From: Eledone cirrhosa
Lineage: Eukaryota
DNA length: 64,000 nt
Direction of reading: 5' to 3'
Assembly: GCA_964016885.1 (NCBI GenBank)
Contig: OZ024745.1
Coordinates: forward strand, 120,528,001-120,592,000
Shown in pieces: positions 8,965 to 60,329 of the stretch (the stretch's first letter is position 1; the number at the start of each line of letters is the position of its first letter). The position numbers and the translations under genes were made by a program. The notes under the pieces are model-generated. The model was not told the origin of the DNA. It searched no databases and was given only the letters and a program-made list of their open reading frames with translations.

Positions 8965-9118
8965 CTGGTCTATAATAATGAGTTGTAGAAGATTTACTCA
9001 TTTCTTTGGGGTTGATGCTGGCCCTTTTCATATAGCTGTTATAACCATCTTTCAAATAACTGGTGTTGTAAAATTTACCATAGTTAACATTAAAGGATCG
9101 TTCCAGTGAACTGGTATC
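8965..9118 (-). CDS. ABLIM: Internal coding exon (154 nt, phase 0->1), DTSSLERSFNVNYGKFYNTSYLKDGYNSYMKRASINPKEMSKSSTTHYYRP; abLIM/UNC-115-like linker
   Basis: ctaattcttaactctttccaattttag| acceptor and CAG|gtaaga donor; only one frame is open throughout. The Y-x2-SYL-x-D...Y[ML][KR]...I[ND]P...H[YF][YH]RP pattern matches what I recall of UNC-115/abLIM (HFHRP motif). Confidence 0.75.
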
Positions 9119-13174: not shown

Positions 13175-13322
13175 ATATTTATTAAAATAACAGATTAAAG
13201 TTTAAGCAAAGAATCGCTGCTTTCACCCTTAACGGGATCTTCTGAAACTCTTCAGAAGATCCCGTTAAGGGTGAAAGCAGCGATTTTTTGCTTAAACTTT
13301 AATCTGTTATTTTAATAAATAT
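13175..13322. repeat. ~150-bp near-perfect palindrome with 4-nt loop; single arm also at ~25036-25102
   Basis: atttattaaaataacag...gatcttctgaa-actc-ttcagaagatc...ctgttattttaataaat. Confidence 0.92.
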
Positions 13323-22975: not shown

Positions 22976-25261
22976 TTGTTAGCTCTAAGCAGGAATGACA
23001 AAAATCATAAAATGGAACTAAAGGTAACTAACTGAGGTAGGGAAAATGGTTCCTGATTGGAATCTATCCTCATGTTTAGGATTTAATGCAGTTGTTTTTT
23101 TTTAGAGAGTTTAAAAGAAAAAAGCCCAACAGAAAATGTGAAATGATAAAACAAGGACAATATTGATTTCAAATTTGGACATGAGGCCTGAAAATTTTTT
23201 GGAAAGAGCAATGTTGATTAAATCAACTCCAGTATTTGACGGGTACTTTGTTTTATTGACCCCGGAATAATGAAAGGCAGTGTTGATCTTGGTGGGATTT
23301 GAACTCAGAATGCAAAGAATCAGAACAAATACAGCAATGATATATTATCCGACAGTCTATTAACCTCTACTTGATTACTTGATTACATGTAATTATAGTT
23401 AGGAATGAGGTATGGAAATATTAGGTATGGCACAAAATGAAAACTTACTCATTTCAGAAATACAGGGTTTGCTAATGTGTAAAGTAATGTGTAAAGTAAT
23501 GTGTAATGTGTAAAATAACTAGTTATATAAAAATGAACACACAACAATACAGAACTACTCACCTAATTTGTAGAATTATAGAAAAACTGATAGCAATGGC
23601 ATTGTAGAGAGGGTTTAACCCTTTAGCATTTACATTACTCTATATTTACTGTTGTATTTTCGCAGTAAAAGCTTTACTTCACATAATTATCTCACATAAT
23701 ATCAAATCTATGAGATTTTGATATTATTTAGAGAACAATACCTTAATATCAGTAAGGGTGGATGGTTATGGCCAGTTTGAACGGAAAGAGGTGGGAGAAT
23801 TCTGGCCAGATATGGCCGGTTTAAATACGATGGAGTTAAGTGAATTGGTGAACAATCACTTAATGTTTTACAATAAAACATTTTTTTTAAAGATCAGCTA
23901 AACACATTTCCATATACACAAATTCATAATTGAAAAAACAAAACATGTCAATGACAATACATTTCAAAAATGTCTTAAAATAAAATTTGTAAATTAGATT
24001 TTAAAAAACATATACAGATATCAAATATAAATATATTGTGTAAGCAATAAAGGCAGTCTATGATGTAAAGGCATAACACATAAAACTAACATCAAAAACC
24101 TACAAGAAATATCTACAAATAGGCACTAGTTACACACAATAGTTAAAAAGAAGGAAATGCTTGACTGATAAAAAGCCATTTTGAAGAGGGGGATTTGTGC
24201 AAAGTAGTGCATGTGAGTGAGTGTAGATGTGTGTGATATTCTAAGAAGAAAAAGCAGTGTCCATAGCTTTATGGGTTATCCTAAATATTGTGATATTAAT
24301 AAATGTTTCTACTTTTGTCACAAGGCCAGCAATTATCCCAGTACATTACTGGTACTTTATTTTATTGACCCTGTAAGGATGAAAGGCAAAGTTAACCATG
24401 GTGGGATTTGAACTCAGAACGTAAAGAGCCATAACTCTATGCTGCAAAGCATGCTGTCTGATGCTCTACCAATATTGCCAATCCACCAGAGAGGTGAGGA
24501 TGATTGAGGATGAATTGCAATAGTTGGTTGAAAAGACTGACAAGAAAGGAGATCGAAAGAGATGCAGTTATGAGGAAGAAGGATTGAGCTACATATTTCA
24601 GGTAGAATTTGAAAAGAAATTGTGCATAAGGAGAAGTGATTGTAAGGAGTTGTTCTAAGGGGGAAAAAACTGACAAGGTCAACAGGTCCATAGAGAGAGA
24701 ATGCAATGCCTAAATGGGCTAATGGTTCATGATTGAAGATACCAACAATTTAATTGGTATGGAGTTAATAGTTTAGCCCTTTAGCGTTTACATTATTCTA
24801 TATATACTATTGTATTTTCATGGTAAAGGCTTTACCTAACATAATTATCTCACATAATATCGAATCTATGAGATTTTGACATTATTTATTTTAGAACAAT
24901 ACCTTGACATAAGTATGAGCAGCCAGATACAGCCAGTTTAAATGCTAAAGGGTTAAATTCAGCTGAGAAAAATATCAAGTTGATATATATATATACAAAG
25001 TCACACAAATATACGTATAGTAATATTAATAAATGTGAAGATCCTGTTAAGGGTGAAAGTAGCGATTCTTTGCTTAAACTTTAATCTGTTATCCTAATAA
25101 ATGTATATATATATATATATATATTAGAAAGTGAGGTTTTTTTTACAAAATGAAAAATAACCGAGGTGTCCTACACGAGTGAAAGTATAAAGAAAAAGAG
25201 ATGAAATCGAAAATGCAACTGGAGTCTTATTTTTTTTAAAAATATATATATTTATTTGGTT

Positions 25262-25299
25262 CCTTTACCGGTTTCGCAGTTCTTCTGCTTTTCAAAAGG
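25262..25299 (-). ncRNA. Minimal type I hammerhead motif, U3-A8 core variant
   Basis: Minus strand cctt-TTGAAAA-gcag aagaa ctgc-GAAA-ccgg-TA-aagg; all three stems pair perfectly. Confidence 0.7.
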
Positions 25300-25361
25300 T
25301 GAGTTGAGATGGAGGGTCTGTAGTTTTTCTCACAGTTGCATTTTCGATTTCATCTCTTTTT

Positions 25362-25413
<52 letters not shown>

Positions 25414-25510
25414 TAGGTAATTCCGAAGGAAAAGCAAAGGAAAAAAGAGTGCTCTATGTATAGAACAGAGCTATTTAATTAGATAGTGAACAACACAAAA
25501 TATAACTACT

Positions 25511-25575
25511 TCATTACGAAAGGTTTCTGTATCCCAGACAATATCAATACACGTCTGGATCGGTCATCAGACAGA
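25511..25575 (-). ncRNA. Hammerhead-like core inside a fold-back element
   Basis: Minus strand CTGATGA-cc-gatccagac...gtctgggat-aca-GAAA-c-ctttc-GTA. Stems I and III are weak. Enclosed by inverted arms 25473-25506 and 25579-25610. Confidence 0.45.
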
Positions 25576-25624
25576 GATGTTATTTTGTGTTGGTCACTTT
25601 CTAATTAAATATATAAATATATAT

Positions 25625-25880
25625 CAGGGGCGAAGGTCTGTGCATGTGTTATAGAATCGTGAGTTGATCAATTGCGTCGATTGAAGCAAGCAGAATTTTG
25701 ACTGCTTACTAAAACGTAGACTCAAAAAGATAACACACACACACACTAGATAACACTACATGCGGCTTTGACCGGGAGGGTCATTTAGGAGGAGGGGGGG
25801 GGGGGGGGGGGGCTGCACAGCCCCACTTTCCACCATGGCGATTGGACTGCATGCCCTGCTTTCCAGGTTACCCTTTGCCA

Positions 25881-25883
<3 letters not shown>
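25625..25883. mobile_element. Short TIR element inserted in (TA)n
   Basis: Termini CAGGGGCGAAGG / CCTTTGCCACTG; internal G19 run. Confidence 0.55.
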
Positions 25884-25917
<34 letters not shown>

Positions 25918-26178
25918 GCGTCCCTTAGCGCCTTATGCGTGAAGGAACACATATCCTATTATTACTACTCTCCGCTATTGTTGAGAGACAAATTGGGTTG
26001 TTCCGACTGCTGCTAGTGATAGTTGCGGCCGGTTTGACCTACCTCCCTCTGCCTCTATCTTTACTTCGGCCCTTGAAAAAATTGATTCCACTTCATTCAC
26101 TCTCATCTCAGGAACAGTTTTGGATAGCGCTAGTTCGTAATTTAAATTCAAGAATTTTATATTCTTCGAATGAAAAGA

Positions 26179-26261
26179 ACCTTCTGACGAGAATCTTTCT
26201 TTGCAACGAAGGCCGTATGGTCTCCGTTTATTTTTGGGATTCGAAACCGATCGGTAAAGGT
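26179..26261 (+). ncRNA. Type I hammerhead ribozyme motif with intact core
   Basis: acctt-CTGACGA-gaatctt...gggattc-GAAA-ccgatcgg-TA-aaggt: 5-bp stem I, 7-bp stem II, palindromic stem III, GUA triplet (cut after 26256). Confidence 0.85.
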
Positions 26262-26328
26262 AACTATAGTAGGTAAAGTCAATTTTTTAAAATTTATTTT
26301 GAAACTTTTTCATTATTTGCTAAACCTT

Positions 26329-26364
<36 letters not shown>

Positions 26365-26851
26365 ACTGTGCACCGAGCCAATCCCACTCTCTGAGTGACA
26401 GTAGCTATAACCCGAAAGGAAGAAAAGATCAACATCATCTGTAACTACTGAGCCGCAGGTTCTATATCGGAGTTATCCCAGTTTCCTGAGTTGCCTTCTT
26501 CTATAAGAATGCCCTGACAAAGGCTAGGGGTCCTTCAGTGGTTTAACTGTGCGGTAAATGTGTATATACATATTTACACACTTTTGGATGGCCGTTGACT
26601 CTTATGAGTTCTTCCGCCCTTTGTCAGGTTTTGTTTTTTGTCCAGCAGGATGTCCAAAATCACCCTCCTCACCAAGTAAACTTGGTGGGGTTGCCGGTTT
26701 AGTCGCCGACGACCTGACCGTGCGACAGGTTGTACTGGGTTACATGTTACCAGTAGCACTCAAGAGTGACCCAACATATATATATATACATATATATACA
26801 TACACATATACGAGGTGTGTCAGAAAAGTTCCAGGACTGATGTCACAAAAG

Positions 26852-27761
<910 letters not shown>

Positions 27762-28329: not shown

Positions 28330-28813
28330 AGTATCGATCTGAAGATGCCACCAGGAATTAGAGACACAGGCTGATACACACACACATACACGTTTGTATG
28401 TATGTTTGATGGTGGCTGACTGGGAGATAGAAGCTCTTGAAAGAGAAACTTGGCGTGGAATGGTGAATGGTGAGGTCCATAATTTTGAGGACAGACGCAT
28501 AGTGCATGAGAAGATTAAATGAGATATGTGTAAGCAATGCCCTGGTGTATCTCTCGAAACGATCGGTGTCTCCATTGAATTGGTGTGCCCTGAGTGTGGA
28601 AAGATTTGCTTGAAGAAATCTGATCTTAGGAGCCACAGTCGCAGCCATGTTCAGAGAGAACCTGTGAACTATTATCCCCATGGTATTGGGAAGGTTCACA
28701 GGCAACCTGATGCAAGACCTGAGGACAGGGAGATTCATAGTTGTCGTCAATGTGCAAGGGAGTGCAACTCTCTAGCAGGCTTGAAAAGCCATATCCGGGT
28801 GTCACACATCTGA
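28330..28813 (+). mobile_element. 3' end of an RTE-type LINE ORF with two C2H2 zinc fingers (decayed)
   Basis: WEIEALERETWR followed by CPECGKICLKKSDLRSHSRSH and CRQCARECNSLAGLKSHIRVSH; internal stop upstream. Confidence 0.7.
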
Positions 28814-29735
28814 ATCTGACAAGCGATTACAATCACCATGCATATATGTATGCCAGATTGCTCTTCAGTGCTACTGGTAACATGTAACTCAGTACAACTT
28901 GTGCATGGTCGTTGGCCACTAAACTGGCAACCCCACCAAGTTTACTTGGTGAGCAGGGTGATTTTGGACACCCAGCGGGATGAAAAACAAAACCCATCAA
29001 AGGCCGGAGGAACTCAGGAGAGTTAATGGCCATCCTATAAAGTATTTTTTTCTTTCTTTTTTTGTGGAGCATGAGACTTCTAGTCTTCATTAAGACATCT
29101 CACTAGGAGAAGGTCCCTCTGATATAAAACCTGTGATGTTTGTAACCAATGATGTAGACCAGTTATACTTTTTGGGTAAATGCATTTGATGTTCAGAGAG
29201 TGGGATTGGCTCTGTGCAAAGCCTTTCCTCACTTAAAAAAAGGTTCAAGCACAGGCATTGCTTCATATGTGACATTTTTTGCGATGCATGGTATTGCTGG
29301 CCATAGGCAAGTCCTTAGCAGGACTAAAAAGCCACGTCAGTGATGCTCATGCTTAAGTATCAATCGATGGCATTACTTGAAATCGAGTTGCAACTATCAT
29401 CATCATGTATGTATATCATCATCATCATCATCATCATCATCATCGTTTAACGTCCATCTTCGACGCTTGCATGGGTTTGGACGGGAGTTTTCCCACTTGA
29501 GGCAAGATTGGTTGTCTTGCTTGTATAGGACTATCTGGCGGGTTTTCTATGGCTGGATGCCCTTCCTAACACCAACCACGTTTACAGTGTGGACTGGGAG
29601 GTTTTTACCGTGTTACCTACACGGCCACATTACAGCATATATATATATATTCACACACACACACACACATATGTATGTATATAGTTACTTACATGCACAG
29701 AAGTGTGCATGCACTCAATGATGATATGTATATAA

Positions 29736-36235: not shown

Positions 36236-36423
36236 TATATGTGGGATAACAAGTAATCGTTTTAGGTAATCCAGTTAGAGGTTGTGAGTACTCTGTACTA
36301 TGGATAGTTTTAACGTACGGCGTTGTTTGCCCGAACAAGAGGTTTCCTTAGTTAGGTAGCGAGTTTGCGAGAATTCTCATGCAGGTTAATCTTGGAGTAA
36401 TAGTAGTGAAAGAGTGAAGAATA

Positions 36424-36540
36424 ACAGTATTCCGATGATTTGATCAGAGACACACACTGTATTTAAGGTCGAGTGACACAACTTCCAGTGATTAGTGGCC
36501 TTTAGACTCACCTGATCAATGAAACAATTGTTAATACTGT
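36424..36540 (+). ncRNA. Type I hammerhead motif with long stem-II insert, U4C core variant
   Basis: acagtatt-CCGATGA-t-ttgatcag...ctgatcaa-t-GAAA-caattg-TT-aatactgt: 8-bp stem I, 8-bp stem II, palindromic stem III. Confidence 0.7.
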
Positions 36541-37818
36541 AAATAAAACCCTTCTTGTACAGCCGACCGTTATTCTTCACTCTTTCATTATATATATATA
36601 TATATTATATAAGTAGTTCCACAACAGTTAGTACACCATTTCTGAGAATAATTTGCTTCACCTCAAATGGAAAGGGTGTACTAGCTGTTGTGGAACTGCT
36701 TCTAGCAAACTCATCCCATGGACTGAGTGCTCTTACTGTGGATATAACCAACCAGTGTTCTGCCACTATATATATATACATAATCAAATAGAAGCTGTAC
36801 CAGCTTTTGGACAATATTGTAAATCATTTAATTTTTGAACTTTCCCTAAGTCATTTTCGGTTGAAGGGATCAGCACTGGTTCTTGTAGCAGTTAAAGTTA
36901 GTTTCTCTGGGCAACACCGGGAACTATGAAATGTTATGCTTCTATTAAAATACCAAATTACAGTGAGGATGCAGGAGAAATATAAATCAATCATTCATTT
37001 TGTTTTGAACTGTTTTTGTTTTTACATTTGAAAAGAGTGTGATAACCCTGAAATATTATGTTGAAATATACTGGATAAAAACAGTGTTTTGTTTCATTTT
37101 CATCCTTTGCCCTTTATATATTTCTACCACATTGTATCAGCTTTCTAAAGTTATCAGTCATTTTACATATCTCACAATGTTTCATATCAACTATAATAAT
37201 TGTTAAATCTTTTGAAATAATTCATGCTTCATCTTCTTTTGTACTTGTATATACATGTAGCTAATAAGCCATTAGCAGATGTTTTAATAGAATAATCCAT
37301 ATGATATATGAATTCTTAAGTAGGAGCTAAATACAGACCCAACAATGGTAAATTAGTTCTTCAAATTTACTAATTATTGTTTGATTGAAACTAACAATGG
37401 ATATATAGGAAAATATTTAGAAAAAAATATTTAAAATACATTTGGTTATTTGCTAGAAAACTATAAATCTTATTTATGATCTCTGGTGTAACAAAGCATT
37501 AACTATTAAAACTTCATTAAATATTAAGATTAACCTTTTAGAGTTAAACAATATGAAATTATGCTCACTGCAGTTAGAATCAGCCACACCCGTTCAACTT
37601 TGTACTTTAGTTTTTTATTTATCCTACATAGCTACTTTAATTAATGAATAACAATGAAAATAAATGTGTTTACTGTGTGTGTATATTTGTATAGTGTGCA
37701 TGGAAGGAGAACAACAGCACAACAAAAACAATGGCAATGGATGACAACAAATATACAGCAACACCACTAGTAGCAGCAGTAGTAGTAGTGGAAGTAGACC
37801 GAGAGATCAAATACTGAC

Positions 37819-37884
37819 CTGTTTGCTCACCCCAGATAAACGGTGCACAGGCAAGCACATCCCAGCAAATGATTGCATAAGACA
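37819..37884 (-). CDS. Symmetric (likely cassette) exon, 66 nt, phase 0->0, CLMQSFAGMCLPVHRLSGVSKQ
   Basis: ctaat branch-like motif plus atgttttcttag| acceptor, and CAG|gtcagt donor. GC-richer than the flanks and frame-preserving. Confidence 0.55.
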
Positions 37885-54026: not shown

Positions 54027-54617
54027 ATGTCAGGTCACTCGAGTGCTACTGGTAACATGTAACCCAGTACAACCTGTCGCATGGTCAGGTCGTCGGCAAC
54101 TAAACTGGCAACCCTACCAAGTTTACTTGGTGAGGAGGGTGATTTTGGACACCCTGCAGGACAAAAAACAAAACCTGACAAAGGGCGGAAGAACTCATAA
54201 GAGTCAACGGCCATCCAAAAATGTGTAAATATGTATATACACTTGTACGTATGTATATATATGTATATGCGCTGGGACACAGAAATAATCGGGCTGGATA
54301 CCCGATCGCGCGGTTAAACCACTGGGAGTGAAGGACCCCTAGCCTTTGTCAGAGCATTCTTCTAGAAGGCAACTCAGGAAACTGGGATAACTCCGACATA
54401 AAACCTGTGGCTCAGTAGTTACCGATGATGTTGATCTTTTCTTCTTTTCGGGTTATAGCTACTGTTGCTCAGAGAGTGGGACTGGCTCAGTGCACAGTCT
54501 TTCCTCACTTTAAAAAAAATCTTCGCGCTCAGGCATTGCACGATAGAATTAATTAATAATTACTAATAATGGTATATCATGCAATGGCCATACTTGATAA
54601 CGAGGGGGCAGCCATCA
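54027..54617 (+). mobile_element. Non-autonomous RTE-related element (structured 5' head plus RTE-like 3' end); copies 28849-29420 (+), 26362-26775 (-), 3' half 46530-46825 (+)
   Basis: Three copies share the same 5' boundary next to (TA)n. Related 3' ends encode KSLAGLKSH remnants and end in ggcc(a/g)tact.ga.aacgag..ggcagcca.c plus a simple-repeat tail. Confidence 0.7.
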
Positions 54618-54738
54618 TATATATATATATATATAAAGAAATTCGAAGTTTGAAAGCCACGACAATGTGGGTTTGGACGAAGAATAATTAAATCTTAAGA
54701 AACAGGGCTTGTTTTTTTTATCTTAATTTATTCATATA

Positions 54739-54776
54739 TCCTGATATTTTGAGATTAATATCTCTTCTTCCGAGGA
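54739..54776 (-). ncRNA. Degenerate minimal hammerhead motif
   Basis: Minus strand tcct-CGGAAGA-a-gaga tattaa tctc-AAAA-ta-TC-agga; two core substitutions, stems intact. Confidence 0.5.
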
Positions 54777-55381
54777 AAATAAAGGAACTATTCCAGTGTT
54801 CGATGTGGCTTCGACATCGGACACTGGAATAAATAAATATATATATACACACACACACACACATATATATACATATATGTGTGTGTGCAGTGTAGTTAAC
54901 ATGAAGCATTGCGAGATATGTAACAAGTGATAAGAAAGCCGGTACAATGAGGATAGAAATATAAAGGTGGTATTAGAAAGAAGGATGGGAAAAAAGGTAG
55001 TAATGTTTTTTCTAAGTAATATATAAGGTAAACACCTTTCAACATAGGAAAGGTCATTAGGAAAGAACACGTTGTTATGTTCTTCTTTACCTTGAAATAT
55101 TGTGATGAAATATATTGGGTAAAAAAACATTATTCTGTTTTGTTTGTCATCCTTTAGGACTGTCCCACCTTTATATATTCTATCTGTATGGTGCTGGCTT
55201 TCTTAGAATTTTTAATCTGGGCTAATAATACATATTTGCTCTATGGCTTTTTGAGTCCTCTCTGAACATTGGTTGCTATGGAGATATGAAAGATACAGAA
55301 GCGAAAACCAACCAAACAGTGATTGTGTTCTGTTATTATTTCTGGCAATATTATTACAACAATATGACTTGACCCAAGTAT

Positions 55382-55436
<55 letters not shown>

Positions 55437-60070: not shown

Positions 60071-60329
60071 CTAGAGAAAAACAATGAAATGATAAATTAT
60101 TAAAAACTGATATAAATTTAAAACACTTAAAAAACAAATTTATTCCATTGATAAAAGTTTTATTTATGAAATAAATCATGTAAATACAGTTTAATAGAAA
60201 AAGAAAGAAAGAAAATTTAGATTGAGAAGAATGGAATGTAAAATAGGAAAAATATAAAGAAAAAAGAGAAAAAGAAAAAAAAAACAGGAAGGGGAGGGAA
60301 TGGTATTGTCACAAGAATGGGGAGGAGGG

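Follow-up and report, generated by a model that had tools for sequence, protein, structure and literature searches.

What is the short insert that interrupts a (TA)n tract inside a large intron of Eledone cirrhosa, and what might the hammerhead ribozyme motif that it carries do there? In order to answer this, we analyzed the surrounding 64,000-nucleotide stretch of genomic DNA (the window; contig OZ024745.1, positions 120,528,001 to 120,592,000). The original prediction had described a hammerhead with a canonical core in an insert of about 420 bp flanked on both sides by (TA)n, and both parts of this description held. The insert is 417 bp long (25915 to 26331, plus strand), is one copy of a multicopy repeat family, and lies between two (TA)15 arrays, one on the left (25884 to 25914) and one on the right (26332 to 26361); the left array is likely to be part of the insertion target. 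A target-site duplication is unreadable inside these microsatellite flanks.

Descriptor match and sequence agree on a type I hammerhead, its core intact, at 26179 to 26261 (plus strand). Helix I has 5 bp (26179 to 26183 with 26257 to 26261), and the core box CTGACGA (CUGACGA, positions 3 to 9; 26184 to 26190) leads into helix II with no extra nucleotide. Helix II (26191 to 26197 with 26236 to 26242) has 7 bp, two of them G-U, and closes a branched 38-nt extension; helix and extension together (26191 to 26242) comprise the 7 bp, an internal loop, stems of 4 bp and 5 bp, and a GUAU loop. The GAAA box (26243 to 26246) is followed by a perfect 10-nt palindrome (26246 to 26255), and cleavage is predicted 3' of A26256, the last residue of a GUA triplet that ends in TA (26255 to 26256). 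All conserved nucleotides of the CUGANGA, GAAA, and UH elements are present, as is the G10.1-C11.1 pair, and helices I, II, and III are able to form around the core with 5, 7, and 3 bp, respectively, with 10 bp in helix III of a dimer.

The strict type I descriptor found this motif and no other in the window, and none of 300 shuffled windows (dinucleotide-preserving, in 2-kb blocks) contained an equally good match; a loose descriptor gave a mean of 0.033 matches per shuffled window. Rfam reported no hammerhead at its gathering score across the window, nor at E values up to 10 within 25800 to 26500, and its E-value matches were rejected as (TA)n hairpin artifacts; the long (38-nt) helix II arm is the likely reason for the miss. 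The overall folding energy of the motif is unexceptional (z scores of -0.25 and -1.0), whereas the helix II arm stands out (z score of -2.84, reached by 1 of 200 shuffles). An AU-rich stem-loop predicted just 5' of the 3' end (26267 to 26322, plus strand) is not significant (z score of -1.66, 10 of 200 shuffles). Pattern scans of metagenome contigs and of viral contigs for the hammerhead gave no match in either set.

The insert differs from its surroundings in composition: its CpG observed/expected ratio is 1.17 versus 0.26 for the window, and its 18 CpGs are the highest count among 153 bins of 418 bp, the runner-up having 13. The (TA)n flanks alone are only modest evidence for insertion because such runs are frequent in the window, which contains 37 arrays of at least 6 units; gaps of up to 500 bp between these arrays make up 7.8% of the window, and those between arrays of at least 15 units make up 1.4% (two gaps, the insert included). 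The insert occurs once in the window. We rejected the idea that its two flanks are halves of one interrupted element, since the right flank is part of a repeat that recurs at 54033 to 54501 and 28861 to 29225, whereas the left flank is not. The three copies of that repeat are 81 to 85% identical, and the one adjoining the insert (26362 to 26775) is truncated where it meets the (TA)n run.

Copies of the insert were sampled by mapping 4 of 14 listed public runs (X2, X12, X5, and X6) onto it at a threshold of at least 80% identity. In X2, which consists of contigs from organism A, 735 contigs match at 80 to 100% identity (211 at 99% or more, 201 at 95 to 99%, 153 at 90 to 95%, and 170 under 90%), and 1,961 reads match in X12, a set of RAD reads from the same organism. 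One piece of 86 bp, with the same sequence as the window copy, reaches a depth of 308, compared with 6 to 61 among the remaining pieces listed for X2, an excess suggestive of a young subfamily. The family is therefore multicopy and, with 211 of 735 contigs at 99% identity or more and its CpGs kept, agrees with the proposal that it is young and recently mobile. Runs X5 and X6 (organisms B and C) gave 4 contigs and 1 contig at depths of 2 to 4.6, which looks like trace DNA, and we claim neither horizontal transfer nor a wider distribution from them.

Summed contig depth in X2, which is not a measure of copy number, is 35 to 177 thousand over the hammerhead and 3' end versus 1.4 to 25 thousand over the 5' half, with a slope that is not monotonic and has a local peak at 25929 to 25970. 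This gradient suggests 5' truncation of family copies; it would also be expected from divergent subfamilies that match the conserved core only, or from AT-rich matches near 26290. The peaks of read starts and ends in X12 (25915, 25991/25994, 26083, 26153, 26284, and 26291) were discarded as element boundaries, since all of them fall at CATG or AATT sites, presumably the restriction sites of the RAD enzymes; a short element spanning 26153 to 26284 is likewise only apparent, both of its edges being restriction sites in X12. A smaller depth step at 26152 in X2, with 11 loose-ended contigs, may mark a shorter subfamily starting there; in the RAD data, the corresponding step falls at a restriction site.

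At the 3' side, the window copy ends at 26329 to 26331 (plus strand), 73 to 75 nt past the predicted cut. Past 26329, where the window copy runs into (TA)n, 23 contigs in X2 and 129 reads in X12 share a continuation that starts TA rich (agreement of 0.73 to 0.74); it is visible for 30 letters only, over which a tail, an open reading frame (ORF) start, and a tandem unit are indistinguishable. Tandem dimers, which the original prediction had proposed to look for, did not appear: there is no tandem repeat at the locus and no head-to-tail joint in any of the four mapped runs, although such joints could have escaped notice, because RAD fragments stop at restriction sites and the contigs are short.

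Variation among the copies bears on the structure of the motif. Among the 40 substitutions seen, out of 100 and with linkage unphased, helix II has four (26193 A>G, 26195 C>T, 26237 G>A, and 26240 T>C). The first three keep pairing singly, and 26240 T>C pairs together with the change at 26193 (A-U to G-C); it is the rarer of the two in both runs, which fits joint pairing. All four are thus compatible with pairing, as 9 of the 14 possible single helix II transitions would be anyway, and none of the 40 falls in the 31 positions of the core, helix I, and helix III (P = 0.039). Helix III has one indel, an additional T inserted after 26250 (X12, 159 of 623 reads; X2, depth of 1,397 of 71,717), which breaks the palindrome and would permit a 4-bp helix with a 3-nt loop. 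Together, these patterns are suggestive, although not proof, of selection on the hammerhead structure: only 40 of 100 substitutions were seen, and most transitions in helix II would preserve pairing in any case.

Two long stop-free frames run through the insert, one of 115 codons (plus strand) and one of 103 codons (minus strand); a frame of 115 codons was reached in 17 of 2,000 base shuffles of the insert. Neither frame, including that on the minus strand, has a homolog in Pfam, two word-seeded searches, a full HMMER search, PDB, or the ESM Atlas, and these same searches gave no reverse transcriptase (RT) or GIY-YIG match. The earlier statement that the insert lacks convincing coding capacity stands as far as homologs are concerned, but it has to accommodate these two frames. 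Across the window, a Pfam scan of 296 of the 312 stop-free frames of at least 48 codons gave no RT and no GIY-YIG, only a C2H2 finger (28523 to 28810) and one weak match. The substitutions listed for the family have no clear third-position bias. Two stretches of the insert frames, KEH (frame 25915) and E-x-x-W-I...L-N near 26112 to 26145, resemble what we take to be Penelope-like element (PLE) motifs. That they mark a decayed GIY-YIG C terminus in the 5' half of the insert is an unsupported lead, as neither Pfam nor PDB, the Atlas, or either of two database searches yielded a match.

The short helix I, long helix II, and palindromic helix III, together with the position at the 3' end, the optional continuation, and the (TA)n target, lead us to consider the insert probably a 5'-truncated 3' end (a solo pseudo-LTR) of a Penelope-like retrotransposon or of a nonautonomous derivative. 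The earlier reading as a young-looking mobile element is supported but left the likely class unnamed. Metazoan Penelope-type hammerheads are described as having a helix II of 7 to 8 bp, a helix I of 4 to 5 bp, a loop 1 that is ill defined, and a palindromic helix III, and most of them are solitary motifs derived from elements that are truncated (Cervera and De la Pena 2014, PMC4209133). The motif in the window has this shape and shares with those PLE pseudo-LTR hammerheads the type I topology, the 5-bp helix I, the 7-bp helix II, the G10.1-C11.1 pair, the palindromic helix III, and occurrence as dispersed single copies of a sequence-diverse family. Its helix III geometry is that of the Aedes and Saccoglossus(2) rows; of the 56 rows of Fig. 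S3, 4 have 3 bp with a 4-nt palindromic loop, and one of these 4 (Aedes) is PLE linked (PMC4209133).

There are also differences from those hammerheads. The PLE-typical extra nucleotide between A9 and G10.1 (consensus CUGANGAH) is missing from the motif, as it is in only 2 of the 56 Fig. S3 rows, one of them PLE linked; the helix II loop is a 38-nt branched arm, in contrast to 3 to 9 nt in the 56 aligned rows, which include no cephalopod (PMC4209133). In addition, an ORF with RT and GIY-YIG, expected of a PLE, is not linked to the insert among the window frames and protein searches described above.

The end geometry of the insert also resembles that of a known PLE. PAc, a Poseidon-clade PLE of Anolis carolinensis, likewise has a hammerhead just upstream of the 3' end and AT-rich targets, with an optional tail to which the continuation in the insert family may correspond; PAc copies end 111 to 118 nt into the ORF, the cut site lies at +26, and the optional tail has 30 to 40 bp (PMC11167929). 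Subtraction of these published positions places the PAc end at about 85 to 92 nt past the cut, compared with 73 to 75 nt in the insert. Unlike the insert family, which is TA-like just past its 3' end, PAc is reported to prime without target homology, and the PAc ORF begins inside the hammerhead, whereas no such ORF was found in the insert (PMC11167929). PLEs are also known for 5' truncation and, in Neptune and Naiad, for a microsatellite bias, which in Octopus Naiads is toward (TA)n (PMC8557442). The insert, lying in (TA)n, fits this preference and may share 5' truncation and a tail with these Naiads, but they are described as having an N-terminal GIY-YIG and no canonical hammerhead, which the insert has; exact-match searches of the supplementary sequences of that paper with five short insert motifs gave none of five, where line breaks or cut runs may hide hits (PMC8557442). 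Active insertions reported for O. vulgaris include PLE families (PMC13282606).

Under this PLE-end interpretation, the parent element would be transcribed elsewhere, and its GIY-YIG endonuclease would nick AT-rich or (TA)n DNA. Reverse transcription would be primed about 75 nt downstream of the hammerhead cut, or farther on to leave the optional tail of other copies, and would halt after about 415 nt; insertion into the (TA)n run is likely to have occurred by such target-primed reverse transcription. The hammerhead itself would act in a tandem transcript of the parent, either as a dimer formed through the 10-nt palindrome or with the aid of the element's protein.

The main rival, which we regard as possible and yet unlikely, is that the insert is a non-LTR retrozyme present as a solo monomer, with tandem arrays elsewhere whose transcripts would be cut by the hammerhead to unit length, circularized, and reinserted by PLE proteins; it differs from the PLE-end interpretation mainly in the existence of a coding parent. 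Like the insert, non-LTR retrozymes of mussel, coral, and axolotl are described as short, low-GC, noncoding units with one type I hammerhead, a palindromic helix III, and solo copies (PMC7229834; bioRxiv 10.64898/2026.07.22.740005). Mussel units have 350 to 390 bp and type I hammerheads without the usual tertiary-contact nucleotides (PMC7229834), solo copies are reported to be common, and a 2026 preprint argues for a descent of retrozymes from PLE pseudo-LTRs (bioRxiv 10.64898/2026.07.22.740005). The absence of coding homologs for the insert frames and a 3-bp helix III that is sturdier than that of minimal PLE motifs also fit. However, the head-to-tail repeats of 150 to 450 bp, each with a type I hammerhead, that are expected of retrozymes were found neither at the locus nor as joints in the four mapped runs, and the 30-letter continuation does not rejoin the insert, which implies a unit longer than about 445 bp, so that it would reach or surpass the upper limit of that range.

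A more specific and rather improbable variant combines the above comparisons: the insert family would be a noncoding hammerhead parasite using the machinery of (TA)n-targeting Naiads or of an undescribed octopus PLE, the TA-like stretch past its 3' end would anneal to the nicked microsatellite to prime synthesis, and the long helix II arm and the one-base variant of helix III would make up a pair of dimer-dependent and monomer-competent ribozymes.

Still less probable is a non-PLE short retroposon, SINE-like and mobilized by a (TA)n-targeting LINE, with a captured hammerhead. Depth weighted toward the 3' end and 5' truncation are common to all target-primed elements and would suit it, as would the abundance of SINE-like repeats and of inserts bounded by (TA)n in the window; yet the insert itself has neither a poly(A) nor a tandem-repeat tail, other copies run on past its 3' end, and the shape of its hammerhead matches PLE-type motifs.

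The location of the insert raises the alternative that a conserved, host-adopted intronic ribozyme regulates the gene around it. Actin-binding LIM protein 1 (ABLIM) of octopus maps to minus-strand exons at 60074 to 60015, 37884 to 37819, and 9118 to 8966, and from 3608. The intron of about 28.7 kb that holds the insert is bounded upstream by the exon at 37819 to 37884 (tblastn with P0002, residues 175 to 196, 95% identity) and downstream by that at 8966 to 9118 (residues 197 to 246, 96% identity), the latter being 96% identical over 51 residues to the Octopus bimaculoides protein. With ABLIM exons on the minus strand on either side, the insert is antisense to its host gene, as had been predicted. 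The position in an ABLIM intron and the intact core could point to adoption by the host, but we consider it very improbable: the host pre-mRNA bears the noncatalytic strand, the insert is a member of a multicopy family, and the two runs of other organisms hold only 1 and 4 contigs at the low depths given above. Least credible of all is a chance resemblance to the hammerhead consensus inside a repeat, which the missing Rfam match and the overall folding z scores near -1 or weaker would allow, but against which stand the 0 of 300 shuffles, the perfect palindrome at helix III, and the pairing-compatible variation in helix II.

Whether the window hammerhead cleaves is a separate matter. In the predicted minimum-energy fold of the monomer, which is 2.1 kcal/mol more stable than the active one, the palindrome pairs with the core CUGA and CG. 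The pair probability of helix III is 0.03 to 0.09 in two short contexts, 0.45 to 0.48 in a 182-nt context, and about 0.03 in the whole insert. The proposal that stem III closes as 3 bp with a GAUC loop in the monomer or as 10 bp in a dimer is sound with respect to the dimer, as the palindrome is predicted at -16.6 kcal/mol for the duplex versus -0.9 for the hairpin. A two-copy cofold, in which the helix II arm paired intermolecularly and not as the active dimer, was set aside as uninformative, since the model cannot represent the double-hammerhead geometry.

Penelope-type hammerheads are reported to show little or no cleavage as monomers, and the minimal Schistosoma PLE hammerhead did not cleave as a monomer and cleaved at a low level as a dimer (PMC4209133); the PAc hammerhead of the anole required protein for cleavage and was not needed for in vitro insertion (PMC11167929). 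Retrozyme hammerheads of mussel and coral, on the other hand, do cleave when cloned as monomers (PMC7229834). Because of this and because its 3-bp helix III is sturdier than that of minimal motifs, some cleavage of the window hammerhead as a monomer is possible. To call it the best candidate for an active ribozyme was nevertheless an overstatement, given a monomer predicted to misfold, an orientation antisense to the host transcript, and relatives that cleave poorly alone. Self-cleavage at the ABLIM locus appears doubtful on these models; the hammerhead is most likely a silent passenger there, as it occurs singly, lies antisense to ABLIM, and has a monomer that is predicted to misfold.

The insert is part of a stack of (TA)n-separated pieces that extends from 24983 to 27712. 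A second, separate hammerhead-like motif (25262 to 25299, minus strand) lies 0.9 kb from the main one, outside the insert in the segment at 25124 to 25364; it has a U3-A8 core variant, 4-bp helices I and II, and a 6-nt palindrome. It was found with a relaxed descriptor (mean of 0.09 matches per shuffle), and none of 200 shuffles gave a match with a palindromic helix III; the U3-A8 variant has been described for Schistosoma PLEs (PMC4209133). With this motif in a neighboring (TA)n-bounded piece, the stack has the appearance of a hot spot in which two or more hammerhead-bearing families have inserted. The segment at 25124 to 25364 is flanked by (TA)10 and (TA)22 and holds in its interior a perfect inverted repeat of 36 bp, a feature also of inverted PLE ends; the second motif is sense to the ABLIM pre-mRNA, and its helix I sequence is nearly that of the main motif.

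Several further features of the window were noted. Two SINE-like copies of 296 bp (26907 to 27202 and 27403 to 27698), 99.3% identical and inverted, flank a perfect (TA)100 and represent either a very recent inverted duplication or an assembly artifact. A 144-bp palindrome (13175 to 13322), with arms 96% identical, lies in a CpG-rich, (TA)n-bounded segment and is possibly another inverted retroelement end; a related 66-bp fragment (25037 to 25102) adjoins another (TA)n run. More CpG-rich, (TA)n-bounded segments are located at 25410 to 25883, 36240 to 36588, and 54635 to 55385, and on the minus strand of the first of these, a possible decayed hammerhead, noticed by eye and with no descriptor match, consists of a helix and a CTGATGA box. 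The frame at 28523 to 28810, with two C2H2-type zinc-finger matches, is presumably the decayed 3' end of a LINE, as it resembles RTE-type ends.

The literature that we searched on hammerheads and ribozymes in octopus or cephalopods, with subscription papers and Repbase outside its scope, contained no description of the family of this insert; the giant-squid genome paper gives 235 Rfam hammerhead-1 matches, without an analysis where they are reported. The element class is well known, and the modest advance here is that octopus is added to the animals with Penelope- or retrozyme-type hammerheads. An effect of the insert on its host gene, ABLIM, is unlikely. In PLEs, the hammerhead of PAc is dispensable for insertion in vitro, and a young, diverse family with natural variants of helix II and helix III would be handy material with which to address cleavage as a dimer versus a monomer and priming at (TA)n.
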